From positions 1 to 18,115 of the IMG/VR virus record IMGVR_UViG_3300045988_171219: 18,115 nucleotides of DNA; one strand, written 5' to 3'. Positions 163 through 18,115 of the stretch are shown here, in pieces. The notes below the pieces were generated by a model that worked only from the letters and a program-made list of their open reading frames with translations, was not told the DNA's origin and did not search any database. Numbering within the stretch: the first letter of the stretch is position 1; every line of letters starts with the position of its first letter. The translations under genes were made by a program, and so were the position numbers. The stretch comes from a virus.

Positions 163-205
163 GCGTTAAAAAGTGGCTGTTATTCATTGGCAATGGTGTT
201 ATAAT
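163..205 (+). promoter_or_regulatory. ITR-L inward-facing promoter (extended -10) with upstream 16-nt motif
   Basis: TGTTATAAT has TG at 197-198 and TATAAT at 200-205. The -35 is weak (CTGTTA 177-182). The motif GCGTTAAAAAGTGGCT (163-178) ends 21 nt before the -10. SD GAGGAGG (221-227) and ATG 236 follow. Confidence 0.55.
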
Positions 206-689: not shown

Positions 690-690
690 T

Positions 691-1391: not shown

Positions 1392-1393
1392 AA

Positions 1394-2357: not shown

Positions 2358-2361
2358 GTAT

Positions 2362-2407: not shown

Positions 2408-2436
2408 TTTACATAAACACGAACGTATGTTATAAT
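2408..2436 (+). promoter_or_regulatory. Late operon promoter (near-consensus sigma-A type)
   Basis: TTTACA (2408-2413), a 17-nt spacer, then TGTTATAAT (TATAAT 2431-2436). SD GAGGTGG (2444-2450) and ATG 2456 follow directly. Confidence 0.6.
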
Positions 2437-2455
2437 TATATTAGAGGTGGATAAT

Positions 2456-4094: not shown

Positions 4095-5941
4095 TGGTAA
4101 TTAGACCAACGAACGAGGTGCGTATCTATAAGAACGTACCTTTTTCAATAGATTATAAAAATATTATGGACTTTAGTTCGGTGGCGGAACAGAGTGCATA
4201 TTTTAATTCTTTACCTCAAAAGACATTTAGTAATTTAACATATACTAGAAATAATGGTACAATTATAGTTAATGGAAATCGTGATACATTACTTGATTAT
4301 AATTATATGTCTTTTGTTAATAAAGATTATGGAAATAAAACATTTTATGCTTTTATTACCAATGTTAGATATTCAAGTGCTAATGCTTCATATATAGATT
4401 TTGTAATTGATGAGTGGCAAACATGGTGTTTTGATGTTAATTTTAAAGAAAGTTTTATTGAAAGAAAACATTGTAAAAGGTGGAATAGCGACGGAACACC
4501 CGTAATAAATACGCAAGATGAGGGACTAGATTTTGGTAGTGAATATATTGTAAAAGACCATAGAGAATATAATAACAATCTTTATTGGGTGTGTTATGTT
4601 ACTAGTGTTGAAAATTATGACGCCATTTATTCAAGACCAAAAGATATACCCAACCAATTAGCGGTATTTTATGCCCCAATATATAAAACAACTAATAACA
4701 CGATTGCACAATGGAAATTAGGTGATGTCTATATGGCTTCACATGACACTATTACCAATAGATTTAGGAATAGTGATAAGTTAGTTAATAGGTTAAAAAG
4801 TGTTTTCATAGTAAGTGAACCCCCGTTTAGTTATACTTATACAATAAGTGGTGGCTATATTAATGTTACATCTAATGATTTAAAAGTTACTAAAATTCAA
4901 TGGGGGAGCGAAGAAACCTATTCAATAAATATGGGATATTGGGTAAGTAATAAAAACCCCGCTAACACTTTAAGAACTTTTCCAAAATATGGTAATTTAA
5001 AAAATAATATTACTGAAAGTAAATTATTAATGTTTCCGTATTCATATGTTCAAATTGTAGACGGACAAGGAAATAGTTTTGATATTAAAAATGAATATCT
5101 AGACGATACACAAATAAATGTTCGTACATTTACAAGTGGTGGGTTAAATAGTAAACAAGCCCATATAGTTGAACATTATAGATATAAAGGTGTCAACTTG
5201 AATTATTGTAGGTGGGAACTAGGTAATGGTGTTATTAATAATTTTCCTAATAATTTAACAATTATTGATGACTATTCGGCAGCATACTTGCAAGGAAATG
5301 CTAATCAAATTAATCAATCTGTTAATGCAACACTTAATCAATCTCAACTTAATAATGTTTTAGCACAAAATACAGCAAGGGCTAGTCAATCGGCTTCACT
5401 TGTTAGAGGTGTTGGTGATACTATTGGTGGTGGAATAGTTCAACCTTTAGTGGGTGCTGGTGGTGGAATTAAAGCCTTAGGAGATTATACAGCAACTGTT
5501 ATTACTAGTGAACAACAAGTTGAAAATACTGAATTACAAGGTAATTTAACAAGTGAAAATGCTGTTAAAAGTGCTTTAGCAAAAAAACAAGACGCCCAAA
5601 ATGTGGCGGATAATGTTTCTCTACAAGGTGGAGATGTATATTTTACATTTCAAAATCAATATAATGGTTATTGTCTTGTTTATAAACAAATATCTGATGA
5701 ATACATAAGAGTGTTAGAAGATTATTTTAAAAAATATGGCTATGCATATAATAGAATAGAAACACCACTTTTACGTACTAGAAAATCGTGGGATTATATA
5801 AGATGTATAGACGCAAATATAACGGGGAATATTAATGAAAATTCCTTAGAAAAAATAAAAACTATATTTAATCAAGGTGTAACAATATGGCACACTACTG
5901 ATGTTGGTAATTATAGTTTAAATAATGATGAAAGGACATAA
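4094..5941 (+). CDS. Tail knob / distal tube protein (phi29 gp9-like), 615 aa
   Basis: Blocks colinear with phi29 gp9 as recalled: NVPFSIDYKN, DYGNKTFYAFIT, FKESFIERKH..WNSDGTPVINTQDEGLDFGSEY, ESKLLMFPYSY, DDYSAAYLQGNANQ, YFKKYGYAYNRIE..LRTRK and IFNQGVTIWHT..VGNYS. Confidence 0.9.
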   Translation: MVIRPTNEVRIYKNVPFSIDYKNIMDFSSVAEQSAYFNSLPQKTFSNLTYTRNNGTIIVNGNRDTLLDYNYMSFVNKDYGNKTFYAFITNVRYSSANASYIDFVIDEWQTWCFDVNFKESFIERKHCKRWNSDGTPVINTQDEGLDFGSEYIVKDHREYNNNLYWVCYVTSVENYDAIYSRPKDIPNQLAVFYAPIYKTTNNTIAQWKLGDVYMASHDTITNRFRNSDKLVNRLKSVFIVSEPPFSYTYTISGGYINVTSNDLKVTKIQWGSEETYSINMGYWVSNKNPANTLRTFPKYGNLKNNITESKLLMFPYSYVQIVDGQGNSFDIKNEYLDDTQINVRTFTSGGLNSKQAHIVEHYRYKGVNLNYCRWELGNGVINNFPNNLTIIDDYSAAYLQGNANQINQSVNATLNQSQLNNVLAQNTARASQSASLVRGVGDTIGGGIVQPLVGAGGGIKALGDYTATVITSEQQVENTELQGNLTSENAVKSALAKKQDAQNVADNVSLQGGDVYFTFQNQYNGYCLVYKQISDEYIRVLEDYFKKYGYAYNRIETPLLRTRKSWDYIRCIDANITGNINENSLEKIKTIFNQGVTIWHTTDVGNYSLNNDERT

Positions 5942-5945
5942 TTTT

Positions 5946-6821
5946 ATGATAGCAAAAAAGTTAAAAACAAATGCCCAAGCAAGAAATAATCGTGTTTATA
6001 TTCATAATGTAAAACGATTATATAAAAAGGCTATATCTATGTTTGAGTGGGTAAATATGCCTAAGGAAATAGATACTAGATACTTAGAAAAAACTCTTGT
6101 TGAACAAGGACATATATGTTTCTTTAAAGATGAAAAATTAGATAAATTTATGTGTTTACAATGTACAATCGGTGGTAGGTTTAATGTTTATGACCTACCT
6201 ACTGATTATCATGTGTATACACCTAGTGGATATAATAGAGACCTTGATATGTCTAATAGTGTAGTAATTTATTCTGATTTAGCACATGATAATTTAATGC
6301 CTGTGATATATTATCACGCAGAAAATATATCTAATGTAGAAAGAACTATTGATATAAATCTTAATCAATTAAAAAGACCTTACGTATTCTTAGTACCTGA
6401 AAATAAAATATCAAGTGTTAAGGCACTTTTCAAACAAATTAAAGATAATGAAGAATTAATTATTGGTAGTAATGATTTAAGTGTAGAGGGTTTATCAATA
6501 GAAAATACGATAACACCTAATAACACAATTGATTTATACACATTAAAGAAAAAATATTATAATGAAGCACTAACTGATTTAGGTATATCAAATTTTTCTG
6601 ACGATAAAAAAGAACGTCTTTTAGCGGGTGAAATAACTAGTAATGAAGAAGATGTTTATCTAAACAGAGCCAATATGTTGGAAGCAAGAAAACAAGCATG
6701 TAAATTAATTAATGAAATGTTTGGACTTAATATTGATGTTAAATTTAGATATGAAGAAAATGTAACAATGGACGAAATAGATGAAACTGAAGATTTAGAC
6801 GAGGTGAAAAATAATGAGTAG
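5946..6821 (+). CDS. Portal / upper collar connector (phi29 gp10-like), 291 aa
   Basis: Blocks parallel phi29 gp10 as recalled: FEWVNMPKEID.RYLEKTL, VVIYSD, KKERLL.GEITSNEE and ARKQACKLINEMFGLNIDVKFRY. ATG 5946 with SD AAAGGA (5931-5936) is preferred over the track's ATG at 5925. Confidence 0.88.
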   Translation: MIAKKLKTNAQARNNRVYIHNVKRLYKKAISMFEWVNMPKEIDTRYLEKTLVEQGHICFFKDEKLDKFMCLQCTIGGRFNVYDLPTDYHVYTPSGYNRDLDMSNSVVIYSDLAHDNLMPVIYYHAENISNVERTIDINLNQLKRPYVFLVPENKISSVKALFKQIKDNEELIIGSNDLSVEGLSIENTITPNNTIDLYTLKKKYYNEALTDLGISNFSDDKKERLLAGEITSNEEDVYLNRANMLEARKQACKLINEMFGLNIDVKFRYEENVTMDEIDETEDLDEVKNNE

Positions 6822-7548
6822 ATACACATTAAGATTATCTGATGTATGCGAGATGTATTATGCTGGACGTGAAAAAGAACTTAATAATAGTAGTTTAACT
6901 GAACTTTTAGATAATGGACTTACACCCTTAGAAAATATATTTGAAGTACCTACACCTGATGAGATAATTGAATATGCAAGACCTAAAATTTTTGATTTTG
7001 ACTACCCACTTCCAAATAATAGTGTGGACAAAAAGAAAGAACTTGAAACAAAAATTTTAAAACATTATTATACAAGGGAACTAGGTGCTGACTCATGGGG
7101 TGTATTTAAATTAAGATTAAATGAAAGATTAAATTTAATAATGCCTTACTTTAATGATTTATATAAGACAATTGATTTAATGAACGATAACCCATTAATT
7201 AATAATGAAATAACAGAAACTAAAAATACTAAAAATAGTAATACCAATAGTGGGCAAGCAAGTGCTAACTCTACATCAAACGCTAAAGAAGTATTTCAAA
7301 ATACTCCGTCAAGTCAAATTGGTGATGTTGACTATGCCACCACTATAACAACAAATGAAAATTCTACCACTGATACAAGCGAAAACTCAGGCACTAGTAG
7401 TGGTAATGAAGATATGATAAGAACAATTAGAGGTTTATCAAATTACTCTAAACAAGACATGATATCAAGATATCGTGAAAATATTATAAATGTGGAAGAA
7501 GCAATAATAAATGAACTTTATGATTTATTTCTTCTAATTTATAGTTAG
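6814..7548 (+). CDS. Lower collar protein (phi29 gp11 position), 244 aa
   Basis: Assigned by synteny, lying immediately after the portal gene. SD GAGGTG upstream. Contains a Ser/Thr/Asn-rich central segment. No motif independently recognised. Confidence 0.55.
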   Translation: MSRYTLRLSDVCEMYYAGREKELNNSSLTELLDNGLTPLENIFEVPTPDEIIEYARPKIFDFDYPLPNNSVDKKKELETKILKHYYTRELGADSWGVFKLRLNERLNLIMPYFNDLYKTIDLMNDNPLINNEITETKNTKNSNTNSGQASANSTSNAKEVFQNTPSSQIGDVDYATTITTNENSTTDTSENSGTSSGNEDMIRTIRGLSNYSKQDMISRYRENIINVEEAIINELYDLFLLIYS

Positions 7549-7560
7549 TTATGATATAAT
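7532..7560 (+). promoter_or_regulatory. Possible internal promoter ahead of the fibre genes
   Basis: Extended -10 TGATATAAT (7552-7560) is identical to the 9-mer at 16504-16512. The -35 is weak (TTCTAA 7532-7537) at 17-nt spacing. It lies in the 29-nt gap after the lower collar gene. Confidence 0.35.
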
Positions 7561-7577
7561 AAAATTGAGGTGATAAT

Positions 7578-8222
7578 ATGAATAATCTTAATATATTTTT
7601 TAATAAAAATCATGAAATGGTATTAAATAATGACGTATCACTAGAAGCAATTACTAGTAAAGTAGTTGATTATCTAAATTGTTTAATAGACCGAGAAAAT
7701 GAATTATTAAAAATGTTTGAAAACTTAAAAACAGAAACAAATACATCTATTACAGATTTAAGTAATGCTTTATCTGAATTTGTAAGAGAGCAAAAATCTA
7801 ATTATTTAATTTTTGAAACTGAATTAATAAATAGTCTAGTGGAATATAAAAACGATACAGATAAAGAAATAACTGATAAATCTAATGAAGTAGATAATGC
7901 TTTAAATAATATAGATTTAACTGAGGCTGTAAGTAGTTATTTTACATCACAACTTAATACTGATTATTTTAAAAATTTATATCAAACAATCGTAAAAAGT
8001 GTATATGTTTTAGCAGATTATAGTAGCAACCCTAATATTACATACAATAGTGCTTACTATTATAATACAACTGAAGATGTATTATATTACAAGCAAGGAA
8101 GTGTAGTAAAAGCACTAGATTTACTTGAGAGTTGTTTTTATTATTTTAATGGACATTTATATGTAGTAATAGAAGAAAATGGTAAAAAAGTTTTAAGAGA
8201 GGGTGTTATAACTAATGGATAA
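7578..8222 (+). CDS. Tail/neck fibre-associated protein, 214 aa (coiled-coil N-terminal half)
   Basis: SD GAGGTG upstream of ATG 7578. Lies between the collar gene and the large fibre gene. The heptad-like N-terminus resembles that of the next protein. Confidence 0.45.
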   Translation: MNNLNIFFNKNHEMVLNNDVSLEAITSKVVDYLNCLIDRENELLKMFENLKTETNTSITDLSNALSEFVREQKSNYLIFETELINSLVEYKNDTDKEITDKSNEVDNALNNIDLTEAVSSYFTSQLNTDYFKNLYQTIVKSVYVLADYSSNPNITYNSAYYYNTTEDVLYYKQGSVVKALDLLESCFYYFNGHLYVVIEENGKKVLREGVITNG

Positions 8223-9768
8223 ATACAAGGCGTGGATATCTTCTTTAACACCCTTAGATTTTGCAAATGAAAAATCTTTGGAACAAATTATTTATGAACT
8301 TATTCCTATATTAATGGAAATTAAAAATAATCAAGATAGTAAAACAACAAGTTATGATATATTTTTAACTGATTTAAAGAAAAAAATTAATGATATTAAA
8401 ACAACTATAACTATAAGTAAAACAGAATTTATAAATAGAGAAGATGAAATAAAAACGAATATTTCAAGTAAAGAGCATGAAATAAGTTTAAATATTTTAA
8501 ATAGATTTACGGAAATATTAGATAAAATTAATAATTTTGGAGATAGTTATTTTACTAATAACCCTGATGTATTTACTAAGGGTATATTAGATGTTGCGTT
8601 CTTACTTAGTAATAATACTACACCTTATTCTAAGTGGAATAAAGAAGATAAAGGAATTTATGATACTAATGTTAATTTAGTGGATATTGTGTCTACTCCA
8701 CCCCTTGAAGCAAGTGGATATAGATATTGTACAAGTGATAAACAAGTTTATTATGGAGACCATATCACTACGGACGGACAAATCAATAAGTTAGTAAAAT
8801 ATAAAAATAATGTTCTTTATAAAAAAGCATATGGTGTTTTACAAGAAAAATTATTTCCAACAGGCGAAAATGGATATTTTATAGGTTTTTGTGATATTAA
8901 TAATGCGTGCTTTTTTGCTTCTTCTGTAAGTGGAAGTGAAACAACATACTCAATTAAAATGATTAATTTAACTACTAAAGAATTAACACGATATGAAAAT
9001 TTAGTAATGCCAACTGGTTTTTCAAATGTTTATTTAAGTAACAATAATCATTATATTATTAAAAAATTTAATGAGTATTATTTTATGTTTTATTTAAAAA
9101 CTGGCGAAACTATTCCATACATTGCTAAGTCAACTGATTTAATTCACTGGGCAAATGTAGGTAGTATTGGTGCAACTGGTTTAATAACTCTCAGAGTATG
9201 TAATAATAACTTATATATAACTACTTCATCTTTCGGGTCATACTTATATGATGAAGTAAATAACAAATTTGATAAAGTAACCTATGATAATAACGAAGTA
9301 ATAATTATTGGTGAAATTGAAGAAAATATAGTGTTTGTACCTACCACGGGTGGAAGTATTTATTCAACATCAGACAAAAACTTAGCAAACGCAACTATTT
9401 TTAAAGGTGGTACATATTATGCAACTGGTAATGTTAATAGACTAGAATTTAGTAAAAATGAAAACCTTTTTACAATTTTAGGAGAGCCATACCAATTACA
9501 ATATGATATCTTAAGTGTAATGTATATAACTAATCACGGATATCCTATACATAATATCGAGTTTAGTAACCTTAATGCATTTTTTAACATAGATGATAAA
9601 ACTCTATATTCTATTTATAGTATAAGAGGCTCTGTTAAATATTATCCTACCAAATTTGATACACCTTTTATAGGAGATATTGTTATCAATGAAAATGGAG
9701 ATATTTACGATGATAAATATTTACAAAAACTAGAAATAAAAACTGAGTGGGAGTATTTAGGCAGATGA
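8215..9768 (+). CDS. Tail fibre / appendage receptor-binding protein (phi29 gp12 position), 517 aa
   Basis: Assigned by synteny. Has a coiled-coil N-terminus and a beta-rich C-terminal ~350 aa with Asp-box-like strings (KSTDLIHW, YSTSDKN) that suggest a beta-propeller fold. Confidence 0.55.
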   Translation: MDKYKAWISSLTPLDFANEKSLEQIIYELIPILMEIKNNQDSKTTSYDIFLTDLKKKINDIKTTITISKTEFINREDEIKTNISSKEHEISLNILNRFTEILDKINNFGDSYFTNNPDVFTKGILDVAFLLSNNTTPYSKWNKEDKGIYDTNVNLVDIVSTPPLEASGYRYCTSDKQVYYGDHITTDGQINKLVKYKNNVLYKKAYGVLQEKLFPTGENGYFIGFCDINNACFFASSVSGSETTYSIKMINLTTKELTRYENLVMPTGFSNVYLSNNNHYIIKKFNEYYFMFYLKTGETIPYIAKSTDLIHWANVGSIGATGLITLRVCNNNLYITTSSFGSYLYDEVNNKFDKVTYDNNEVIIIGEIEENIVFVPTTGGSIYSTSDKNLANATIFKGGTYYATGNVNRLEFSKNENLFTILGEPYQLQYDILSVMYITNHGYPIHNIEFSNLNAFFNIDDKTLYSIYSIRGSVKYYPTKFDTPFIGDIVINENGDIYDDKYLQKLEIKTEWEYLGR

Positions 9769-10073
9769 AAATAGAAAAAATGAAAAATCTATATTGGTTA
9801 ATTGGGGTAGTAGCAAGTATTTTAATAATTATTATAACTAATACGTGGAAGTTATCAAAATATCATGAAAAAATAGATAATGCATATAATGAAATATTAG
9901 TAACTATTAAGACTAATGAACAAATGAGTTTAAAATCTATTATATGGAACGATAGTATTCCTATTAGTGATAGATTATCAGCATGTGATATCTATATTCA
10001 AAAAGGTTATAATAGTGTTACGAAAAAACATTGTGAAATTGCTCTATCGAATTACTCAGATAAAAATGTTTAA
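9765..10073 (+). CDS. Holin-like membrane protein, 102 aa (single N-terminal TM, possible dual start MKIEKMK)
   Basis: ATG 9765 follows SD GGGAG (9750-9754). The TM helix is LYWLIGVVASILIIIITNTW. Its position just upstream of the lysins, and the two Met codons separated by Lys residues, resemble holin/antiholin dual starts. Confidence 0.45.
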   Translation: MKIEKMKNLYWLIGVVASILIIIITNTWKLSKYHEKIDNAYNEILVTIKTNEQMSLKSIIWNDSIPISDRLSACDIYIQKGYNSVTKKHCEIALSNYSDKNV

Positions 10074-10086
10074 TACGGAGGTTTTT

Positions 10087-10263
10087 ATGAAAATATTAGA
10101 AAATTTAATTAAAGTAAAAACAATTATAACTCTAGCAACTACTGGTTTATTTATCTATTTAGCAATAAAAGAGATATTACCCGTAGAAACTTCTAGTATG
10201 GTTATCGGCATGGTTTTTACATATTATTTTAATAAAGATAAAAATAAAAATGAAAGTGAGTGA
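10087..10263 (+). CDS. Small two-TM holin-like protein, 58 aa
   Basis: ATG 10087 follows SD GGAGG. The two hydrophobic helices are TIITLATTGLFIYLAI and SSMVIGMVFTYYF, with a charged C-terminus KDKNKNESE. The track ORF from 9967 overlaps the previous gene and lacks an RBS. Confidence 0.55.
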   Translation: MKILENLIKVKTIITLATTGLFIYLAIKEILPVETSSMVIGMVFTYYFNKDKNKNESE

Positions 10264-10269
10264 AGCGTA

Positions 10270-11073
10270 ATGAAAGCAATATATTTTGCTAAAGAAATGA
10301 GATTAAGTCAAGGGTACAATAATGGAAATCATAAGCGTCATGTACCTTTTGACTATCCAATTGATGAAACTTATAATAAACCTAATGGTGTTTTTTATGC
10401 ACCTTTTGATTGTGTGGTAGTAAAAAAGTATAAATCACGTTCTAATCAAATATGGATAACAAGTGTAGAACCTGTTTATACACCAACATTTACTGATTAT
10501 GTTACTATACTTATTGGGCATATTTCACCAAAAGAATTTGATAAAATTAAAGTTGGTGATTTATATAAACAAAAATCACCAATAGTACATGAATATAAAG
10601 ACGGACTATCCACTGGACCTCATAATCATGTAACAATGGGGCGTGGTAAACTAGGTAAAGCATGGAGTGAACACAATGGTGTATGGTGTATTAATACCAC
10701 GGGTGGTGCTAAAAAGCCCGAAGATTGTCTTTATATTGACCCTGATTTTACTAAAATAATTGATAATAAAGGAATAATGTTTGAATTTTTAGATAGTCCA
10801 CACGAACATAGTAGATATTATACATGTATATATGATATGTATATTAATAAAGATATGAGTTTTAATAATCATCAAAAGGTTAAAAATTGCACCCCTCAAA
10901 TGAAACGTGCCTTAAAATATAAAGAACCTAACGCTGATGCAGTAATTAGAAAAGGAACTACCATAACCGCTTTAGATATTATTGATAAAGGAGATATCAT
11001 GTGGATAAAAAATTATAATGGATATGTTTGTTTAAAAGGTAAAAAAGGATATTACCTAACGGAGTATAAATGA
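10270..11073 (+). CDS. Endolysin candidate: M23 (LytM-type) metallopeptidase with C-terminal SH3b-like wall-binding domain, 267 aa
   Basis: M23 signatures HxxxD (HVPFD) and HxH (GPHNHV) are present. The C-terminal ~70 aa (AVIRKGTTITALDIIDKGDIMWIKNYNGYVCLKGKKGYYL) are SH3b-like. Confidence 0.7.
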   Translation: MKAIYFAKEMRLSQGYNNGNHKRHVPFDYPIDETYNKPNGVFYAPFDCVVVKKYKSRSNQIWITSVEPVYTPTFTDYVTILIGHISPKEFDKIKVGDLYKQKSPIVHEYKDGLSTGPHNHVTMGRGKLGKAWSEHNGVWCINTTGGAKKPEDCLYIDPDFTKIIDNKGIMFEFLDSPHEHSRYYTCIYDMYINKDMSFNNHQKVKNCTPQMKRALKYKEPNADAVIRKGTTITALDIIDKGDIMWIKNYNGYVCLKGKKGYYLTEYK

Positions 11074-11675
11074 AGCAAAATCAAAAAATGAGGGGAAAAA
11101 ATGGTTTACAAAATGCCTTATTTCCTTTACAAACACTTAGTTGTTCGAGAGGTAGCCATAAAGGTGATGACTACGCATACGATTTTGTAGGATATAAGGG
11201 CGGAGTTAAAACCCCCGATTGTCCTATGTATGCTCCTTTTGATTGTAAAGTAGTCTATAAAGGAAGTAGTGATGAAAAAGAACCCACGATTGTATGGCAG
11301 AGTATAGAAAAAGTAAATTTTGTAAATGGTGAAGTTGATTATATGTGTATAAGTGTTTCTCATGATGATAATTGGAAAAGTTATAATATAGGTGATACAC
11401 GTAAACAAGGAGAACACTTCGCCAATACTGGGGAGACGGGATATGCTTTTGGAGACCATACACATATGATATGTGGTAAAGGTGTTTTTGATAATTTTTA
11501 CATAACACCAATGGGTGCTTATACACTTAAAAATCAATATGATATGCCTCTATGTTTAGGTGTTAATGATACTATTATTAGAGATACTGGTGGGTTTACG
11601 TGGAGTGAATTTAAAGTAGATAAAAAAGATATAATGCCACTATCATTATGTGGTGCTTTAAAATGGAGTGTGTAA
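11070..11675 (+). CDS. Second M23 (LytM-type) metallopeptidase, 201 aa, no wall-binding domain (possible tail-associated lysin, phi29 gp13 analogue)
   Basis: ATGA overlap with the upstream gene. Has HxxxD (HKGDD) and HxH (GDHTHM). It shares YAPFDC.VV with the upstream M23 protein. Confidence 0.65.
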   Translation: MKQNQKMRGKNGLQNALFPLQTLSCSRGSHKGDDYAYDFVGYKGGVKTPDCPMYAPFDCKVVYKGSSDEKEPTIVWQSIEKVNFVNGEVDYMCISVSHDDNWKSYNIGDTRKQGEHFANTGETGYAFGDHTHMICGKGVFDNFYITPMGAYTLKNQYDMPLCLGVNDTIIRDTGGFTWSEFKVDKKDIMPLSLCGALKWSV

Positions 11676-11678
11676 TTT

Positions 11679-12671
11679 ATGCCTGAAAGTTTTTATTATA
11701 GTCCTCAAAAATTACTTACATATAACTATCTATGGAATATGGTTATCGGAGAACGTGGTAATGGTAAAACATATGCTATGAAAAAATATTTTATTAAAGA
11801 TTTTATAAAAAATGGACATCAATTCGTTTGGATAAGAAGATACGAAACTGAATTTGATGATTTTAAAGAATTTTTCTCTGATATTATAGCCAATAATGAA
11901 TTTCCAAAATATGAATTAAGTGTTAATGGAAAAAAGTTATATTGTAATGGTAAAGTTATGGGTTTTGGTATACCTTTATCAAAAGGTATTACTAAAAAGA
12001 GTGTTAATTATTCTGGTGTAACACATATATGTTTTGATGAATTTTTAATACCTAGAGGTTCAAGTTATCATTATTTAAAAAATGAGGTGTTTCGTCTTTT
12101 TGATTTATACGAAACAATCGCACGTACAAGACGGGTTAAAATGTTTATGGTTGCTAACTCAATAAGTCAAAATAACCCTTATTTTAGAGAATTTAATATT
12201 CGATTAACGGGAGAATTTACTAAAGTAAATGAACAAGTTATTGTTGAAACTACCAATAGTGTTAATTATAGACAATATAAAAAGCAAACAGATTTTGGAC
12301 GTCTTGCTTCACTTACTGGTTATTCAAAATACGCTATTGATAATGATTTTGTGGAGGATAATTATAATTTTATTGAAAAAAGAACTCCTGAGGCAATAAA
12401 CAGATTTAATATTCAATTTGATAAAATAATGTTAGGTATATGGATAGACACTAAAAATGGTAAATTATTTGTATCAAATAAATATAATCCTGAACTTCCT
12501 GTTTATTGTATAACCGTGGACCATTTAAAACCTAATTATCTAATTTTAAAATCTAATTCACACTTTATGAATATGTTAAAAAATGCTTATGAATATGGAT
12601 ATATTTATTATGAAAATCTAAAAATAAAGGGTTATATGGAAAATGTCCAAAAGTATTTGAATATAAAATAA
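11679..12671 (+). CDS. DNA encapsidation (packaging) ATPase (phi29 gp16-like), 330 aa
   Basis: FYYSPQKLLTYNYLWNMVIGERGNGKTYAMKKY contains Walker A (GxxGxGKT), and ICFDEF is Walker B-like. Nearly colinear with phi29 gp16 as recalled and of similar length. Confidence 0.9.
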   Translation: MPESFYYSPQKLLTYNYLWNMVIGERGNGKTYAMKKYFIKDFIKNGHQFVWIRRYETEFDDFKEFFSDIIANNEFPKYELSVNGKKLYCNGKVMGFGIPLSKGITKKSVNYSGVTHICFDEFLIPRGSSYHYLKNEVFRLFDLYETIARTRRVKMFMVANSISQNNPYFREFNIRLTGEFTKVNEQVIVETTNSVNYRQYKKQTDFGRLASLTGYSKYAIDNDFVEDNYNFIEKRTPEAINRFNIQFDKIMLGIWIDTKNGKLFVSNKYNPELPVYCITVDHLKPNYLILKSNSHFMNMLKNAYEYGYIYYENLKIKGYMENVQKYLNIK

Positions 12672-12685
12672 TAATGTGTTATAAT
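12657..12685 (+). promoter_or_regulatory. Promoter-like element P1 overlapping the end of the ATPase gene
   Basis: TTGAAT (12657-12662), a 17-nt spacer, then TGTTATAAT (TATAAT 12680-12685). Confidence 0.4.
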
Positions 12686-12691
12686 ATATAA

Positions 12692-12773
12692 AGGGAGAAG
12701 TTACGCTATATGCTTTTATCCGTTTAACTTTTTTAATCTCCCTAAGATATAACTATATGTTATATCCTTTTTT
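12692..12773 (+). ncRNA. Small RNA unit 1 (~80 nt), or alternatively the structured 3' UTR of the late operon
   Basis: A long imperfect hairpin pairs AGGGAGA (12692-12698) with TCTCCCT (12737-12743) and AAGTTA (12698-12703) with TAACTT (12725-12730). The terminator at 12746-12773 follows. No credible ORF, only a 5-codon ATG frame. Confidence 0.3.
12746..12773 (+). terminator. Rho-independent terminator (late operon / sRNA unit 1)
   Basis: Stem GATATAAC (12746-12753) pairs with GTTATATC (12759-12766) around loop TATAT, followed by CTTTTTT. Confidence 0.7.
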
Positions 12774-12774
12774 C

Positions 12775-12803
12775 TTGACTTAAAAACTTTTATATGTTAT
12801 ATT
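12775..12803 (+). promoter_or_regulatory. Promoter P2
   Basis: TTGACT (12775-12780), a 17-nt spacer, then TGTTATATT (-10 TATATT 12798-12803). It abuts the preceding terminator's T-tract. Confidence 0.55.
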
Positions 12804-12809
12804 ATAGAT

Positions 12810-12944
12810 ATGAAACGGGTAAATAAGCACGCATAACACAAGTTCTTATTTCTCTATAAAACCTAACCTGAAAAAAGTTGAATTTCTCTATACCCGTTTC
12901 ATCTATTAATCTATATGAAAAAGCAACTGATAAGTTGTTTTTTC
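12810..12944 (+). ncRNA. Small RNA unit 2 (~135 nt); pRNA candidate by adjacency to the packaging ATPase
   Basis: A 12-bp closing helix pairs ATGAAACGGGTA (12810-12821) with TACCCGTTTCAT (12891-12902). Two CU-rich direct repeats ATTTCTCTATA lie at 12848-12858 and 12882-12892. The terminator hairpin pairs 12917-12928 with 12933-12944. No SD-preceded ORF. Confidence 0.45.
12917..12944 (+). terminator. Terminator-like hairpin ending sRNA unit 2
   Basis: GAAAAAGCAACT, loop GATA, AGTTGTTTTTTC form a 12-bp stem with one G-T pair. The 3' arm itself is T-rich. Confidence 0.5.
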
Positions 12945-12954
12945 ATTTGTAATA

Positions 12955-12983
12955 TTTACATTAATACAAACATTTGTTATAAT
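12955..12983 (+). promoter_or_regulatory. Promoter P3
   Basis: TTTACA (12955-12960), a 17-nt spacer, then TGTTATAAT (TATAAT 12978-12983). Confidence 0.6.
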
Positions 12984-12989
12984 ATAAAT

Positions 12990-13076
12990 GGTAACATCTT
13001 ACCTCGAGTAACTTTCATGTGTTACCTAAACCTTAAGAAATCTTAAGAACATTTAAGAAATCTTAAGGTAATTTTA
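12990..13076 (+). ncRNA. Small RNA unit 3 (~87 nt)
   Basis: The 5' hairpin pairs GGTAACA (12990-12996) with TGTTACC (13020-13026), with alternative pairings involving TTACC (12999-13003) and GTAAC (13008-13012). A long terminator hairpin at 13030-13069 follows. Confidence 0.45.
13030..13075 (+). terminator. Rho-independent terminator ending sRNA unit 3
   Basis: ACCTTAAGA (13030-13038) pairs with TCTTAAGGT (13061-13069), and TCTTAAG (13041-13047) pairs with TTTAAGA (13052-13058, with one G-T pair). Loop is AACA and the tail is AATTTT. The stem is built from two 15-nt direct repeats of TTAAGAAATCTTAAG. Confidence 0.55.
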
Positions 13077-13117
13077 GTTAAAGTGTGGCTTTTATTTTAT
13101 CAATAAAGTGGTATATT
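13075..13117 (+). promoter_or_regulatory. Replication-operon promoter (extended -10 plus 16-nt motif)
   Basis: The motif copy TAGTTAAAGTGTGGCT (13075-13090) ends 21 nt before TGGTATATT (-10 TATATT 13112-13117). This is the same geometry as in the ITR promoter. Confidence 0.45.
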
Positions 13118-13121
13118 TAAT

Positions 13122-13272
13122 TTACAAGCAGAAAAAATATAAGTATTTAAGAGTATAACTCTTTTGTACTTAACAAAATCTTTAAGGGAGTTTTGGCAAA
13201 AATTTCTGCTTGTAATATTAATTAATATTTATCCCTTAGAAAAATTTTTAAATGAAAGCGAGGTGAGAACAA
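13122..13272 (+). promoter_or_regulatory. Structured 5' leader of the SSB / terminal protein / polymerase operon
   Basis: A 13-bp stem pairs TTACAAGCAGAAA (13122-13134) with TTTCTGCTTGTAA (13203-13215). Nested hairpins pair 13140-13145 with 13167-13172 and 13149-13153 with 13159-13163. Loop segment TAAGGGA (13183-13189) is complementary to TCCCTTA (13232-13238). An AU-rich stretch leads to SD GAGGTGA (13260-13266). Confidence 0.45.
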
Positions 13273-13686
13273 ATGAATAACATGTTGACAGTTATGGACG
13301 AAATGCAAGAAGCCTCTAAACAAACTTATTGTTCTATGTTAATAAATAATGAAGAAGATAAGAAAAAATTGTTTAATCTTTTAGGTAATAGTGATACAAG
13401 AGTTAGTGATAACTTAGATAAAACTATTTCATTAAAAGATGTAGTGCTTCAAAAATTCCCAAAAGTTGATGAAGAAACAGGGGAACTAACATATAGTGTT
13501 CGTGTAATCTTAGTTGATAAAGACGGAAAAACTTACGCTAGTGGGTCAAGAGGACTTTATAGAAGTGTTTTACAACTTATTCAATTAGTTGGTGAACCTA
13601 ACACATGGACTAACCCTATCGACATTAAAGTTGTTGAAACTAACATTAAAAATGGTGGTAAAACTTTTGTAATCAAGACAATATAG
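13273..13686 (+). CDS. Single-stranded DNA-binding protein (phi29 p5-like), 137 aa
   Basis: First gene of the replication operon. As recalled, the C-terminal ~100 aa are colinear with phi29 p5 (FN....S..NL.D.TI ... I...DG..Y...S ... L..LV ... KVV......G..F). Confirmation by HHpred is needed. Confidence 0.55.
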   Translation: MNNMLTVMDEMQEASKQTYCSMLINNEEDKKKLFNLLGNSDTRVSDNLDKTISLKDVVLQKFPKVDEETGELTYSVRVILVDKDGKTYASGSRGLYRSVLQLIQLVGEPNTWTNPIDIKVVETNIKNGGKTFVIKTI

Positions 13687-13700
13687 TATTTGTTCTTACC

Positions 13701-13734
13701 AAGGGGTATAGTAATATATACCCCTTTTATTTTT
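13701..13734 (+). terminator. Intra-operon terminator or attenuator between SSB and terminal protein genes
   Basis: A 10-bp GC-containing stem pairs AAGGGGTATA (13701-13710) with TATACCCCTT (13717-13726), followed by TTATTTTT. Confidence 0.6.
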
Positions 13735-13748
13735 AGGAGTTTTAGAGC

Positions 13749-14807
13749 ATGGCTTTAAGAATAAGTAAAAAAGAGAAAAAGTGGTTATATCAAAAAAATG
13801 CTAGTGCAAACAGAAAAGTAAAAAGACTAGCAACTGAGTTTAATATTCAAAATACATTTAAAACAATACGCCCCTCATCATTTAGAACAAGAAAAGAATT
13901 AAATGATTATAAGAAAAGTTTATCTACCTTTTTAAAAAGAAGCACTCATAAATATGTTAGTGGAACGGGTACATATGTTAAATATGTTGGTAATAAAGAA
14001 ATAATCGCAAGAACCGCTATCCCTCAAAAAGAATTTACCGAAATAAGAAAAATTGTTAATCGACGTAATGAACGAGTACGTAGACAAGTTGCTTTATTTA
14101 AATATAAATCTTATGAGGTAAAGGGTGTTACAATTAAAGGTTCATCAACCTATGGACAAATATTTTCTCTAAGACCACCTAAACACGAACTTCAATTTAA
14201 GTATTCTCAATATCATAAAATTGATATTGATAAGTCTTATTTTACCTCCGAGCGAGCGTGGAAAAAATTTGCTTATGGTGTTAAGAAATATCAAACCCCA
14301 CTATCAATTTTAGAAAGGCAATTAATAATGAAAAAGAATTATATAGAAGCCCTACATAATACTTTTGGAAAAAATGCTGACCTTTTAACTGAACTTGTTG
14401 ATAAACTATCAATTGATGATTTTATGACATTTTATGAAAGTGAGAGATTTAGTGATTTTGATTATATTTATGATGAGGTTTTACGTGATGAGGTTTTAAA
14501 ATACATGACGGAACATATGGTTAATTATGTAAAAGAATTAAAACCTAGAGGTATTACTGATAGAGACGTATACGAGGCTTTAGAATATGTTAATAGTTTA
14601 ACCGAAGAAGCAATAACCGAAGAATACAACAAAGGTAAACTAGGTGGTAAACGTATTAAGTTTAAAGTTAAAGGTGAAAATGGACAAACTTATTGGAATT
14701 ATATCGACTTATCACCCACAGAGGTTATTGAGGTTGAAAAAGGTAAAGCCCTTGTTGAATTAAATGATTTTGAAAATAGAACCCATTATATAAAAATAGG
14801 AAAATAA
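13749..14807 (+). CDS. Terminal protein (phi29 gp3-like), 352 aa
   Basis: Lies immediately upstream of the DNA polymerase gene and has a basic N-terminus. FRTRKELNDYKKSLSTF parallels phi29 TP FETRAQFNKWKEQASSF, and DDFMTFYESERFSDFDYIYDE parallels the DDFYELF...SFEEFDSE priming region as recalled. Confidence 0.75.
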   Translation: MALRISKKEKKWLYQKNASANRKVKRLATEFNIQNTFKTIRPSSFRTRKELNDYKKSLSTFLKRSTHKYVSGTGTYVKYVGNKEIIARTAIPQKEFTEIRKIVNRRNERVRRQVALFKYKSYEVKGVTIKGSSTYGQIFSLRPPKHELQFKYSQYHKIDIDKSYFTSERAWKKFAYGVKKYQTPLSILERQLIMKKNYIEALHNTFGKNADLLTELVDKLSIDDFMTFYESERFSDFDYIYDEVLRDEVLKYMTEHMVNYVKELKPRGITDRDVYEALEYVNSLTEEAITEEYNKGKLGGKRIKFKVKGENGQTYWNYIDLSPTEVIEVEKGKALVELNDFENRTHYIKIGK

Positions 14808-14808
14808 T

Positions 14809-16506
14809 ATGAATAAACGAAAAAGTTATGTTGCTGATTTTGAAACAACAACAAATTTGGAAGATTGTCGGGTATGGTGTTATTCTATTAGTGAAATTGG
14901 AAACGAAGATAATACGATAGTAGGAAAAACAATTGAAGATTTTTTCAAACACCTAGAAACTCTAGGTAGTGCTATCGTATTTTTTCATAATTTACGTTTC
15001 GACGCTCAATTCATACTTTATTATATTTTAACATTGGGTTACACTCATGTAAAAGATAAAAAATATATGCGACGTAAAACTTTTACATCTCTTATTAGTG
15101 GACTAGGTGTATTTTATAGTATTGAAGTAAAACTTGAAAATGGTAATTTAATAACATTTTACGATAGTCTAAAAAAGATACCTAAACCTGTAAAACAAAT
15201 ACCAAAAGATTTTGGACTTGAAGAAGAAAAGGGAGAAATTGATTATAATAAAGAAAGACCTGTTGGTTATGAACTTGATGAAAACGAAAAATCTTATGTT
15301 ATGCATGATACTATAATTGTATCAAAAGCCTTAGATATCCAATTTAGTCAAGGACTAGATAAAATGACAATAGCGGGAGACGCTATCGCTTCGGTAAAAT
15401 CTATGACCGATTTTAGAGGACTTTTTCCCGTTTTATCAAAAGAAGAAGATGAATTTATTCGTAAAAGTTATCGTGGTGGTTGGACTTATTGTAACCCAAA
15501 ATTTCAAAATGTTGACTTGAAAGAATTGGAAGTATATGATGTAAACTCATTATACCCCTCACGTATGCGATATTGTATGCTTCCAAAAGGACCCGCCATA
15601 TACTATAAAGGTAAATATGTAGAAAATGATAAATACCCTTTATATGTTGCTCATATCTATGCAACTTTTAAATTAAAGAAAGGTTGTTTACCATGTATTC
15701 AAGATAAACACAATCGAATGTTTGCCTCAACTGAATATATATGCGAATATGATAATATACTTGAACCTTTAGAAATATATCTTACTAGTGTTGATTTAAA
15801 ACTATTTTTAGATATGTACGATATTTATTATATAGAATATGTTGACGGATATATGTTTGAGGGTGCTTATGGTATGTTTGATAATTATATTGATTATTGG
15901 AACAATCAAAAAATAGAAGCGGGTAAGGAAAAAAACGCAAGCAAAAGAACAATTGCTAAACTTATGCTTAATTCTTGCTATGGTAAATTTGCAAGTGCTG
16001 TAAAATCTACATCTAAAGTGCCTTATCTAAAAGATGACGGAGTTGTTGGATATGAGACAATAGAAGATGAAGATAGAGAACCTGTATACACACCTGTTGC
16101 CGCTTTTATAACCGCCGAAGCAAGAGATTTAACTATTCGGTCGGCTGCCCAATGTATTGATAGGTTTTGTTATGCTGATACAGATTCCTTACATGTCTTA
16201 AAGGATAAAACACCACCAAATATTCCCATTGACGATTTTAAATTAGGATACTTTAAATTAGAAAGTAGTCCAAGACGTGCAAGATTTTTACGTGCTAAAA
16301 CATATATTGAGGAGATTTATGATGAAAAATCAAACACATGGAAATTTGATGTTAAATGTGCGGGTATGAACGATGATGTTAAAAAATTAGTTACATGGGA
16401 TAATTTCCATTATGGCTTTACAAGTGATTTAAAAAAGAAGCCTAAAAATGTTAAAGGTGGAGTTGTTATAGTTAATACACCCTTTACAATTAGTGAACCT
16501 AAATGA
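14809..16506 (+). CDS. Protein-primed family-B DNA polymerase (phi29 gp2-like), 565 aa
   Basis: Motifs found: ExoI YVADFETTT, ExoII FHNLRFDAQF, ExoIII YVMHDTIIV, motif A YDVNSLYPS, motif B KLMLNSCYGKF, motif C YADTDS, and KxY AKTYIEE. The N-terminus (DFETTT..EDCRVW) and FYDSLKKIPKPVKQIPKDF are nearly colinear with the phi29 polymerase. Confidence 0.95.
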   Translation: MNKRKSYVADFETTTNLEDCRVWCYSISEIGNEDNTIVGKTIEDFFKHLETLGSAIVFFHNLRFDAQFILYYILTLGYTHVKDKKYMRRKTFTSLISGLGVFYSIEVKLENGNLITFYDSLKKIPKPVKQIPKDFGLEEEKGEIDYNKERPVGYELDENEKSYVMHDTIIVSKALDIQFSQGLDKMTIAGDAIASVKSMTDFRGLFPVLSKEEDEFIRKSYRGGWTYCNPKFQNVDLKELEVYDVNSLYPSRMRYCMLPKGPAIYYKGKYVENDKYPLYVAHIYATFKLKKGCLPCIQDKHNRMFASTEYICEYDNILEPLEIYLTSVDLKLFLDMYDIYYIEYVDGYMFEGAYGMFDNYIDYWNNQKIEAGKEKNASKRTIAKLMLNSCYGKFASAVKSTSKVPYLKDDGVVGYETIEDEDREPVYTPVAAFITAEARDLTIRSAAQCIDRFCYADTDSLHVLKDKTPPNIPIDDFKLGYFKLESSPRRARFLRAKTYIEEIYDEKSNTWKFDVKCAGMNDDVKKLVTWDNFHYGFTSDLKKKPKNVKGGVVIVNTPFTISEPK

Positions 16507-16512
16507 TATAAT
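16483..16512 (+). promoter_or_regulatory. Promoter P4, embedded in the last codons of the polymerase gene
   Basis: TTTACA (16483-16488), an 18-nt spacer (or TTACAA with 17 nt), then TGATATAAT (TATAAT 16507-16512). The TG of the extension is part of the TGA stop codon. Confidence 0.55.
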
Positions 16513-16517
16513 AGATT

Positions 16518-16681
16518 TGTTAGAGAACCCATATTATATATAAATATGATAATAGGGATATTCCAAGGGAGACCTTGCCTATTTATCTATATGTGGGAAA
16601 ACACGTTGTTTATATATTTTTGGATATTTTCTAACAACATTTTTCCTTAAGACACAGATTAAAAATAATTTGTGTCTTTTT
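16518..16681 (+). ncRNA. Structured ~160-nt RNA; best packaging-RNA (pRNA) candidate by synteny with phi29
   Basis: The end-closing helix pairs 16517-16527 with 16627-16637 (11 bp, one G-U). A second helix pairs CCCATAT (16528-16534) with ATGTGGG (16591-16597). A GNRA-capped hairpin CAAGG-GAGA-CCTTG lies at 16564-16577, and a small hairpin pairs 16599-16603 with 16607-16611, giving a three-way junction. The terminator is at 16649-16681. It lies just beyond the polymerase gene toward the genome end, as the phi29 pRNA does. Confidence 0.5.
16649..16681 (+). terminator. Rho-independent terminator (pRNA candidate / replication operon)
   Basis: AAGACACA (16649-16656) pairs with TGTGTCTT (16671-16678), followed by TTTAGTTTT. 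Confidence 0.65.
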
Positions 16682-16724
16682 AGTTTTCAAAAATATCGAA
16701 CCCCCCTTTATAGAAAAAATTTTT

Positions 16725-16833
16725 TAGTAACACTTGTTACCAAAAGTAGTAACACTTGTTACCAAAAGTAGTAACACTTGTTACTGTGTGAAAATGTGGC
16801 TAAACAAATGTTCGTATAGTAACACTTGTTACC
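16725..16833. repeat. Repeat family A: four copies of TAGTAACACTTGTTAC(C), three of them in 22-bp tandem phase
   Basis: Copies lie at 16725-16741, 16747-16763, 16769-16784 and 16817-16833. Copies 1-3 are separated by AAAAG. Each contains the dyad GTAACA-CT-TGTTAC. Confidence 0.9.
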
Positions 16834-16883
16834 ACGCGTTAAAATGTGGCTAAACAATTGTTCGTATGTGTGAAAATGTGGCT
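16786..16883. repeat. Repeat family B: three copies of the 16-nt motif G(T/C)GT(G/T)AAAATGTGGCT, two extended by AAACAA(A/T)TGTTCGTAT
   Basis: Copies lie at 16786-16801 (extension to 16817), 16836-16851 (extension to 16867) and 16868-16883. Related copies occur at 163-178, 13075-13090 and 17938-17953(-). Confidence 0.85.
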
Positions 16884-16895
16884 TTTTATGATAAT

Positions 16896-16923
16896 AAAAA
16901 TCACTAGATTTTAACTAGTGATT
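16896..16923 (-). terminator. Rho-independent terminator of the leftward right-arm operon
   Basis: On the minus strand, AATCACTAG, a 7-nt loop and CTAGTGATT form a 9-bp stem (16899-16907 with 16915-16923), followed by TTTATT. It overlaps the last codons and stop of the 91-aa gene. Confidence 0.6.
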
Positions 16924-17410: not shown

Positions 17411-17759
17411 TTAATACCCCTTTTAATTCTTTAATACATTTATTAAGATTGGTATTAAGTTTAATATTAATACTTTTATAATCTGACTTTGATAATATTA
17501 AACGTGCTTTATCATTATATTTTTTAATTATTGTATCAATTGTTTGTTGCTTTTTGTTTGTTTTTAAATATTCGTATCCATCTGTGATTATGAAATTATT
17601 ATCTACTTCATAAACATCAAATCGCCACCCATAAATATTATTATAATAAAATCGTGGTGCTTTTCTTCTTAATAAATATTGTGTATCACAATACGAACAT
17701 GAAACTATATAATAATAATTTTCTTTTAATTCTTTTTTATTTACTTTACATTTTAACAT
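17400..17759 (-). CDS. Right-arm early protein, 119 aa, unknown function (CSYC motif, YGWRFDVYEV block)
   Basis: The start ATG lies inside the ITR (TAAAATG stop/start coupling to the 39-aa ORF), using the ITR's GAGGT as SD. Family not recognised with confidence. Confidence 0.55.
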   Translation of the reverse strand: MLKCKVNKKELKENYYYIVSCSYCDTQYLLRRKAPRFYYNNIYGWRFDVYEVDNNFIITDGYEYLKTNKKQQTIDTIIKKYNDKARLILSKSDYKSINIKLNTNLNKCIKELKGVLNEI

Positions 17760-17760
17760 T

Positions 17761-17880
17761 TTATTTTACCTCGCTTTCTTCTAGTTCTTCATTTAACAAT
17801 TTTAGTTGTTCAGCAACATATTTTAGGTATGCTATTTCAACATCTAAATTATTAAGATATTTATCAATTGTATTTGCCAT
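17761..17880 (-). CDS. ITR-encoded 39-aa acidic coiled-coil-like protein (right copy)
   Basis: Mirror image of 236-355 with an identical sequence. First cistron of the leftward operon. Confidence 0.55.
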   Translation of the reverse strand: MANTIDKYLNNLDVEIAYLKYVAEQLKLLNEELEESEVK

Positions 17881-17910
17881 ATGCTTTTCCTCCTCTCAAT
17901 TGATATAAAT

Positions 17911-17953
17911 ATTATAACACCATTGCCAATGAATAACAGCCACTTTTTAACGC
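17911..17953 (-). promoter_or_regulatory. ITR-R inward-facing promoter (mirror of 163-205)
   Basis: Reverse complement of the ITR-L promoter, with -10 at 17911-17916 and the 16-nt motif at 17938-17953. Confidence 0.55.
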
Positions 17954-18076
17954 AATTTGACTATTTCCTCCACCATATTGCCAACTTACCCCTAGCCCCT
18001 TGCCTCTCAGTTGCCTATATTGTCAGTGTATTGGCATTAATGGGGGTATATACAATGTATATACATAACTAACTTT

Positions 18077-18115
18077 GCTATTTCAACATCTAAATTATTA
18101 AGATGTTGAAATAGC
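18077..18115. repeat. Terminal hairpin palindrome, right end (loop in opposite orientation)
   Basis: Same arms as 1-39. The loop reads AAATTATTA on the + strand, which follows from the ITR. Confidence 0.9.

Follow-up and report, generated by a model that had tools for sequence, protein, structure and literature searches.

A candidate operator cluster of LexA-type palindromes and early-promoter elements in the gap between the gene blocks of an uncultivated phi29-like phage

phi29 serves as the textbook case of a protein-primed phage. Its regulatory DNA is considered well mapped, the known sites being those of p4 and p6, the Spo0A boxes and the parS sites of Spo0J (PMC2731898). In the tectivirus GIL01, a Firmicute phage, host LexA together with gp7 occupies boxes of the late promoter that follow each other at about two turns of the helix, and gp6, a LexA homologue, binds a palindrome over the -35, this LexA-like palindrome binder acting at a promoter without a -35 (PMC6182141). 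Here we analyzed the 18,115 nucleotides of IMG/VR record IMGVR_UViG_3300045988_171219 (the window) and, within them, an array of short repeats at positions 16725-16883 that lies in a 404-nt gap between two blocks of genes. The window is the complete genome of a phi29-like podophage of ~18.1 kb and 24-30% GC, as it encodes a protein-primed PolB, a terminal protein (TP), a gp16 ATPase, a gp10 connector, a gp9 tail knob, a single-stranded DNA-binding protein (SSB) of phi29 type and a phi29-type capsid protein (Pfam Phi29_MCP matched on its homologues), and has inverted terminal repeats (ITRs). We place the array among operator or decoy-site clusters, an already known kind of element, and see no new category in it. 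It is very probably a cluster of specific protein-binding sites under selection, and the reading that we favor, tentatively, is that of a promoter-less operator cluster for LexA-type dimers and an early-promoter factor, which would act as a binding platform or sink.

Like GIL01, the phage of the window is small, replicates by protein priming and carries LexA-type palindromes about two turns apart, with one box set inside its late promoter. Unlike GIL01, in which the boxes lie within P1 and P3, the main cluster of the window is promoter-less, and no gp6- or gp7-like protein was recognized in the window; GIL01 is temperate, and phi29-like phages are regarded as virulent. Judged by analogy, GIL01 is the closest functional precedent. 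With phi29 the window shares multiple short regulator sites that would tune the early/late program and tie it to host physiology (PMC2731898; PMC11476376); the site sequences differ, however, and those of phi29 are dispersed at promoters and ends, with no terminator-bounded tandem array. A 2024 review of phi29-like phages (PMC11476376) contains none of the terms iteron, direct repeats, tandem repeat, intergenic or non-coding. As far as analogy of form goes, iterons, parC-type centromeres and datA-type titration loci are the closest resemblances. The array has in common with plasmid iterons (RK2, pSC101 and P1) and ParR/parC centromeres non-coding repeats phased at ~22 bp, an AT tract and a variable copy number, but there is no Rep or Par gene, its palindromes are of two or three kinds in place of a single direct iteron, and a search of a plasmid collection found no DNA similarity for it. 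The E. coli datA locus is a DnaA-box cluster and a titration locus. Like datA, the array is an operator-grade cluster without an adjacent controlled gene, of the kind thought to sequester a regulator; unlike datA, it concerns another regulator in a viral setting, where titration is our proposal.

The array consists of three motif classes, A in four copies, B in three and C in two (Table 1). Copies of family A, TAGTAACACTTGTTACC/T, begin at 16725, 16747, 16769 and 16817, with an exact 22-bp step between the first three, and the family can be written as the 6-2-6 palindrome GTAACA-NN-TGTTAC. Its 14-mer GTAACACTTGTTAC occurs exactly four times, as A1 to A4, and nowhere else in the 18,115 bp; when up to 3 mismatches are allowed there are 10 matches against 3.0 expected, a count reached in 0/200 shuffles. 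Family B, AAAATGTGGCT, has exact copies at 16791, 16841 and 16873 and the extended form G[T/C]GT[G/T]AAAATGTGGCT, and the third motif, C (TGTTCGTAT), lies at 16809 and 16859. Half of the AAC-N4-GTT copies in the window (6/12) fall within 16729-16862, and Tandem Repeats Finder ranked the array repeats as the strongest in the genome (period 22, 2.7 copies, 100%; period 50, 2.0 copies, 88%). The array is thus real, non-random and confined to the gap. All of the coordinates, A and B copy numbers, phasing and six AAC-N4-GTT cores given in a first-pass annotation of the letters alone proved correct, and so did its ACGCGT palindrome (16834-16839), C6 run (16701-16706) and A6T6 tract (16714-16725). 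The ACGCGT palindrome is incidental, because relatives have ATGCGT or ATGTGT in its place.

Fifteen relatives were found by a graded PolB search and their contigs compared, at PolB identities of 56-98%, with 96-98% for L001, L155, L194, L195 and L196, 90-92% for L161, L162 and L163, 75% for L164 and L165, 70% for L166 and 56-60% for L189, L190 and L191. The gap, bounded by a small RNA on one side and a leftward operon on the other, was present in all relatives examined. In the close clade (lower case, degenerate copy) the architecture reads AAA/BC/A/BC/B in the window, AA/BC/A/BC/B in L001, AAa/BC/A/BC/B in L155, AAAA/BC/B in L194 and AaAA/bC/A/BC/B in L196, and therefore the array gains and loses units of 22 bp and 50 bp. 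Among the A copies of five close genomes, 18/20 are identical, and where copies differ, they do so mainly in the linkers and at the central NN of AACA-NN-TGTT. Further out, L161 and L163 hold one A (center TG), B in both orientations, direct and inverted, and C; L164 holds three A at 23-bp phase (centers GG and TG), three C and no B; L166 holds C, and there two inverted copies of B make up the hairpin of the leftward terminator; and L191, at 56% PolB identity, holds two A-type palindromes, GGTAACACCTGTTACC and GATAACAATTGTTACT. The sequence TAACA-NN-TGTTA, expected ~0.1 times per 18 kb, is confined to the gap in the window clade, L161/L163, L164 and L191, and the sole occurrence elsewhere is one coding site in the L189/L203 genome. 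The gap of L190 has other palindromes, TTTACAT-N5-ATGTAAA, and a 21-bp tandem array, and nothing comparable to the array was found in the gap of L189. In L190 (57% PolB identity) the palindromes lie within 11988-12363 at a spacing of ~23-26 bp, and the 21-bp repeat, TTTTGTCCCATATTCTCGGTA, has at least 4 copies and is broken by an assembly N-run. As for the conservation of repeat number and phase, which the first-pass annotation had singled out, the motif cores are kept among relatives, whereas copy number, order and linkers change.

These comparisons bear on two alternatives. Because the arms of A are invariant, its center is free and the arms show no compensatory changes, the element would be double-stranded DNA read by a dimer and not an RNA hairpin; invariant 6-bp arms around a free central dinucleotide are the mark of a DNA binder that is a dimer. 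Phages have expanded pseudo-ToxI repeats to escape ToxIN, and on this model the repeats might be transcribed into hairpins that serve as a protein sponge or type III antitoxin mimic, which the variable number of tandem units and a folding somewhat better than shuffled on both strands (z-scores -2.2 and -3.9) would suit. Such an RNA element is very improbable, however, as a strong terminator lies immediately upstream, no acceptable promoter and no toxin gene are present, the hairpins are only 5 bp, the arms are kept in sequence and not by compensation, the tandem layout is lost in L161 and L191 with the motifs retained, and B is common to promoter DNA. The array could also be neutral debris, promoter and operator pieces duplicated by slippage or recombination in an unselected spacer: the number of units varies among relatives of 96-98% identity, some copies are degenerate, the L165 and L195 contigs terminate inside the array, and B is a promoter piece whose array copies have no usable -10 nearby. 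We regard this as distinctly unlikely, given that the A arms are unchanged at 56% PolB identity while the surrounding spacer is unalignable, that CGAACA is retained in the gap of four lineages, that the copies differ mainly in linkers and the central NN, and that ~160 bp of junk is rarely retained in small phage genomes.

Motif C, read on the minus strand, is CGAACA(T/A)TTGTTTA, an exact GAAC-N4-GTTT, for which the window has 3 matches against 0.69 expected. Both C1 (CGAACATTTGTTTA) and C2 (CGAACAATTGTTTA) agree on the minus strand with the Firmicute/clostridial LexA operator sequence GAAC-N4-GTT(C/T), which has an AT-rich spacer and in most cases a C ahead of it. The same GAAC-N4-GTTT form, as GAACnnnnGTTT, is found in the lexA, recA and ruvC operators of C. 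difficile, the operator form there being taken from the consensus of C. perfringens and C. acetobutylicum (PMC4234289). Of the four CGAAC-N4-GT boxes of the window, two lie in the array, one in the late promoter and one in coding DNA; the box is found again in the gap of L161 (CGAACAAATGTACG), L166 (CGAACAATAGTATG) and L190 (GCGAACATTTGTACGC); ACGAACA is kept in the window clade, L161, L163, L166 and L190, followed by a second half-site GTTT, GTAC or GTAT. The four A sites, being TAAC-N4-GTTA, fall outside the LexA operator sequence; they differ from the Cheo box CGAACA-NN-TGTTCG in one base of each half-site, with TAAC in place of GAAC.

IMG/VR was scanned for two A palindromes within 30 nt, for which we estimate that ~0.01 loci are expected; a scan with the single A 14-mer was uninformative, being swamped by chance singletons. 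The paired scan returned 25 loci, several of them coding repeats. At 12/24 of the loci other than the window, the pair lies 110-140 nt upstream of the start of a gene for a 74-aa Pfam LexA_DNA_bind protein; these are unrelated GC-rich phages (47-60%), in which the gene sits between a terS-like gene and terL. This shared neighborhood ties the exact A palindrome to LexA-type winged-helix proteins. As in the window, the same 14-bp palindrome is repeated in these phages with an adjoining C/G run, here in 2-3 copies at a regular spacing of 34-40 bp; unlike in the window, which has no such gene, their arrays lie in the promoter region of the adjacent winged-helix gene and terminase operon. We know of no description of GTAACA-NN-TGTTAC arrays beside LexA_DNA_bind genes. 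The likeness to LexA boxes, first put at one mismatch from the Cheo core, is strengthened by the exact GAAC-N4-GTTT of the C sites and by the position of A beside LexA_DNA_bind genes in 12 phages. The group comprises L130, L135, L136, L139, L142, L144-L148, L151 and L154, some of which carry an intein in terL. In the window itself, a split inverted repeat with the same arms as A, GGTAACA-N24-TGTTACC (12993-13030), lies just downstream of a promoter at 12955-12983; L161 has it too, whereas L164 and L166 lack it.

A box related to C is located in the late promoter (TTTACA-17-TGTTATAAT), which is strong by sequence. The box is identical in L167, and in the L161/L193 genome the 11-mer AACAAATGTAC is common to the late-promoter box and the array C box. 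The late-promoter box may be targeted by whichever factor recognizes the C boxes. Upstream of the late promoter, at 2362-2438, we noted a 23-bp direct repeat, TTTAGTTAACATAATAAATATTA, of 2.2 copies, which is reduced to one copy in a 97% relative and missing from a 92% relative.

Motif B leads to the early promoters. The array 16-mer GCGTTAAAATGTGGCT matches the ITR promoter element GCGTTAAAAAGTGGCT at 15/16 positions, and the ITR promoters have an extended -10 and no -35. B is found 20-21 nt from the -10 also in L161 and L163 (ITR, GCGTGAAAATGTGGCT, 20 nt) and in L161 and L166 (upstream of the SSB gene, 21 nt). Because this distance is fixed, B is an upstream element of early promoters that lack a -35. 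In L164, B is missing both from the array and from the promoter before the SSB gene, and its contig ends short of the ITR promoter. In L167 (113-160) and L193 (66-108), four (A/T)TGTGAAAWTT units in 11-bp phase precede the left early promoter and share TGTGAAAAT with extended B; in the window the extended ITR replaces these units. Further, window 13028-13117 contains four CTTAAGAAAT units at ~10-bp phase, followed by AAAGTGTGGCT, 21 nt and TGGTATATT; this segment, ahead of the SSB/TP/PolB genes, resembles an activator-type promoter without a -35. L161 and L166 share it, and L164 has a reduced form.

The only recognizable DNA binder of the window in Pfam, PHROGs and PDB searches was the product of an AbrB/SpoVT-like early gene (1653-1913), and PDB sequence searches of the small early proteins returned the AbrB fold only. 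By its position, this gene is likely the counterpart of phi29 p4. Similar genes encoding 80-86 aa were seen in L193 (1465-1719), L203 (1288-1530) and L192 (1472-1717); the proteins share a C-terminal ...E(R/N)xFLxxL motif, and the gene lies just upstream of the scaffold (late) genes. We also considered whether its presence tracks A or B among the lineages with a recovered left end (the left ends of L164 and L166 were left out; L192 is another lineage), and rejected this, the gene being in every recovered left end, including those of genomes without A or B.

B also gave rise to the suggestion of a DnaA box and, with the phased repeats, of an iteron-type auxiliary origin or DnaA-recruiting site. 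In form the direct repeats in 22-bp phase beside the A6T6 tract do resemble iterons, a resemblance of form only, and the 8/9 match of TTAGCCACA to a DnaA box, present twice, holds. The reading of it as a DnaA box is not supported: TTAGCCACA has one mismatch to the strict consensus TTATCCACA and fails the relaxed TTWTNCACA, and the DnaA-like portion of B is not the conserved one, since the conserved part extends 5' (AAAATG) and the 3' part varies (TGTGGCTTT, TGTGGCTTAC, AGTGGCTGT), the third array copy and the promoter copies of B differing there. With no Rep initiator gene in Pfam or PHROGs searches, neighbors that are polB, the small RNA and a 91-aa membrane protein, a replication set made up of terminal protein, phi29-type SSB and protein-primed PolB, and no plasmid DNA similarity, an origin at this site is extremely improbable.

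We next turn to the gap itself, where the two gene blocks of the genome meet. Rightward genes span 414-16506 in the order small early genes, late genes, SSB, TP and PolB, and a leftward three-gene operon (17759->16911) starts from the right ITR. A promoter at the very end of polB drives a small RNA of ~165 nt, of whose 52 predicted pairs 20 show compensatory changes in 7 relatives; the consensus fold is a closing helix and a three-way junction with two hairpins. The packaging RNA (pRNA) of phi29 sits directly after polB. The small RNA of the window is probably the pRNA; Rfam gave no match in the gap, its sole match in the window being a chance plastid one elsewhere. Since this promoter-terminator unit is conserved in relatives, the terminator just ahead of the array is a genuine and conserved one. 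Terminator-like sites numbered 3 in the scan, where 0.2 were expected, and both terminators that bracket the array, already marked by the first-pass annotation, were borne out and look competent (stems of 13 and 9 pairs with T-runs). No acceptable promoter was found on either strand of 16683-16898, and the array has no open reading frame (ORF) conserved across relatives. The cluster thus appears, from its sequence, to occupy the only untranscribed spacer of the genome, and the proposal of a cis-acting DNA element and not a gene agrees with the lack of a conserved ORF, Rfam match or usable promoter and with the persistence of the cores across relatives.

Candidate promoters within the array (B-13-TATAGT, B3-21-TAGATT and a minus-strand TATAAA with a G-run) were dismissed because their spacing is wrong or an invariant T is lacking, and because they are not conserved; a p4-type site, CTTTTT-15-AAAATG, was likewise discarded, its partner half-site being absent here. 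The C-run with TATAGA ahead of the A6T6 tract recurs in relatives of 75-98% polB identity and is degenerate in L166 (70%), and TATACCCCCATTAAT at window 66-80, ~30 nt from the probable genome end, resembles this C-run and TTTATAGA element (16698-16714).

The position exactly between convergent terminators in every relative, and the density and phasing of the sites, might suggest a protein roadblock or insulator that backs both terminators against converging transcription or replication forks. We consider this improbable: both terminators look competent alone, L189 has no array at the same position, and the match of the sites to promoter and LexA-type elements would be left unexplained. A further possibility is a centromere-like or anchoring site, at which phased repeats nucleate a complex that positions the genome in spores or daughter cells or at the membrane, the latter via the tail-anchored 91-aa protein encoded next to the gap; plasmid parC/parS would be a parallel. 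The gap always adjoins the gene of a conserved ~90-aa protein that has a membrane helix at its C-terminus, the repeats keep a two-turn phase of 22-23 bp in a non-transcribed spacer, lineage-specific arrays occupy the same gap in L190, and phi29 exploits host parS/Spo0J (PMC2731898). Against this, no partition NTPase or ParB/ParR-like protein is detectable in the window, the soluble part of the 91-aa neighbor is acidic and helical with no DNA-binding signature, and transcription factors are favored by the LexA-type boxes and by the occurrence of B in promoters. The phi29 precedents named at first for partition found no counterpart in sequence either: 16683-16898 holds no match to parS (TGTTNCACGTGAAACA) at up to 4 mismatches, an exact TGTCGAA (Spo0A box) is absent from the whole window, and TGNCGAA is absent from the gap. 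We therefore hold an anchoring site to be unlikely.

Among the possibilities first listed for the array, a regulator sink or operator cluster is the one favored by the evidence, and we propose the following model for the promoter-less operator cluster. A and C would form one operator family (AAC-N4-GTT) bound by host LexA, which a small phage protein might assist in the manner of GIL01, or else by a different winged-helix dimer of LexA type, and the 22-23 bp (two-turn) phasing would place adjacent dimers on one helix face for cooperative binding. B would be bound by a factor serving the early promoters, for which the AbrB-like early protein is the only recognizable candidate. Because no gene is under local control, the cluster would act in trans or at a distance, as a dense binding platform or sink that gains in dosage as genome copies accumulate. 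The repressor might then be drawn off the related late-promoter box and the B factor off the early promoters, so that the early-to-late switch would be coupled to replication or to the SOS state of the host. We consider it doubtful, if worth stating, that the host SOS repressor is the early-phase silencer of a late promoter of constitutive strength, with the array supplying LexA-type and early-element decoys and with replication or DNA damage flipping the switch; this would make a titration timer of a kind undescribed for the phi29-like family.

A number of observations weigh against the model. For B. subtilis LexA, TAAC half-sites in place of GAAC should weaken binding; in other lineages the second half-site of C has degenerated to GTAC or GTAT, no CGAAC-N4-GT box was found in L164, and the late-promoter box is restricted to the window and L161 clades. 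LexA operators overlap or adjoin the promoter that they repress, and 16683-16898 offers none that is acceptable. No phage LexA-domain protein was found in the window with Pfam, PHROGs or a custom HMM (hidden Markov model) on six-frame translations, and neither the window nor its relatives have a homologue of the 74-aa LexA_DNA_bind protein. The AbrB-like gene does not co-vary with A or B; A is absent from L166, L189 and L190, no single motif being universal; and a few of the copies have point changes within their cores. Finally, a cis sink scales in copy number with its own targets, and titration is therefore not an obvious consequence.

Overall, an uncultivated sister group of phi29 carries a plastic yet conserved operator-type cluster with perfect clostridial SOS boxes in a gap that appears free of transcription. 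If LexA or a LexA-type protein does bind there, the co-option of the SOS repressor seen in GIL01 would extend to phi29-like phages, and the array would be a natural viral example of decoy sites. For practical purposes, the array is a marker of variable copy number and a break point of assembly in metagenomes.

Table 1. Features of the array, of its borders and of related sites in the window
Feature	Position	Strand	Description
A1	16727..16740	none	palindrome GTAACA-CT-TGTTAC
A2	16749..16762		palindrome, 22 bp after A1
A3	16771..16784		palindrome, 22 bp after A2
B1	16786..16801	+	GTGTGAAAATGTGGCT; copy of early-promoter upstream element
C1	16801..16817	-	ATACGAACATTTGTTTA; GAAC-N4-GTTT LexA-type box
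A4	16819..16832		palindrome
B2	16835..16851	+	CGCGTTAAAATGTGGCT; contains GCGTTAAAATGTGGCT
C2	16851..16867	-	ATACGAACAATTGTTTA; GAAC-N4-GTTT LexA-type box
B3	16868..16883	+	GTGTGAAAATGTGGCT
B-type element, left ITR	163..178	+	GCGTTAAAAAGTGGCT; 21 nt upstream of -10 of left ITR promoter
B-type element, right ITR	17938..17953	-	GCGTTAAAAAGTGGCT; right ITR promoter, driving leftward operon
B-type element, before SSB/TP/polB	13080..13090	+	AAAGTGTGGCT; 21 nt upstream of promoter -10 TGGTATATT
Related box, late promoter	2420..2433	+	CGAACGTATGTTAT; between -35 TTTACA and -10 TATAAT
Promoter-like site, end of polB	16483..16512	+	TTTACA-18-TGaTATAAT; 11/12 consensus positions, TG before -10
Structured small RNA with intrinsic terminator	16518..16682	+	left edge of untranscribed gap
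Rightward intrinsic terminator	16649..16678	+
C-run element, then A6T6 tract	16698..16725		GAACCCCCC-TTTATAGA; conserved
Terminator of leftward right-end operon (17759 to 16911)	16899..16923	-	intrinsic; right edge of gap

Searches for closer company placed the window far from cultivated phages. The isolates with the best PolB identity reach 45% (Hungatella phage CH17P1 and Bacillus phages Nf and B103), none of them close, and the nearest, CH17P1, was tried as a comparator and set aside as uninformative because of its different genome order. Neither the gap nor the whole window had DNA similarity in a phage collection, alignment-based scans of IMG/VR and GTDB genomes yielded neither a host nor any intermediate relatives, and PolB relatives at 44% identity (L002-L009) have another genome order and no comparable array.

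The ITRs of the window are 395 nt (1-395 and 17721-18115) and 96% complementary, an unusual length, and each holds a 39-aa helical ORF as well as a promoter; the two ends of the 97% relative, L167/L001, have only ~110 nt in common. The first ~40 nt of the window are a fold-back of 258-283, by appearance an assembly artefact, and the true genome end is probably AAAGTTAG... at position 41. After the gene of the packaging ATPase, at 12657-12950, two short units consisting of a promoter (12657-12685 and 12775-12803) and a terminator-like hairpin with T-run (near 12750-12772 and 12920-12945) may be further small RNAs. In L192, a 66-aa product encoded at 9979-10179 matches Pfam Acb2_Tad1_hairpin, the anti-CBASS/Thoeris sponge fold.

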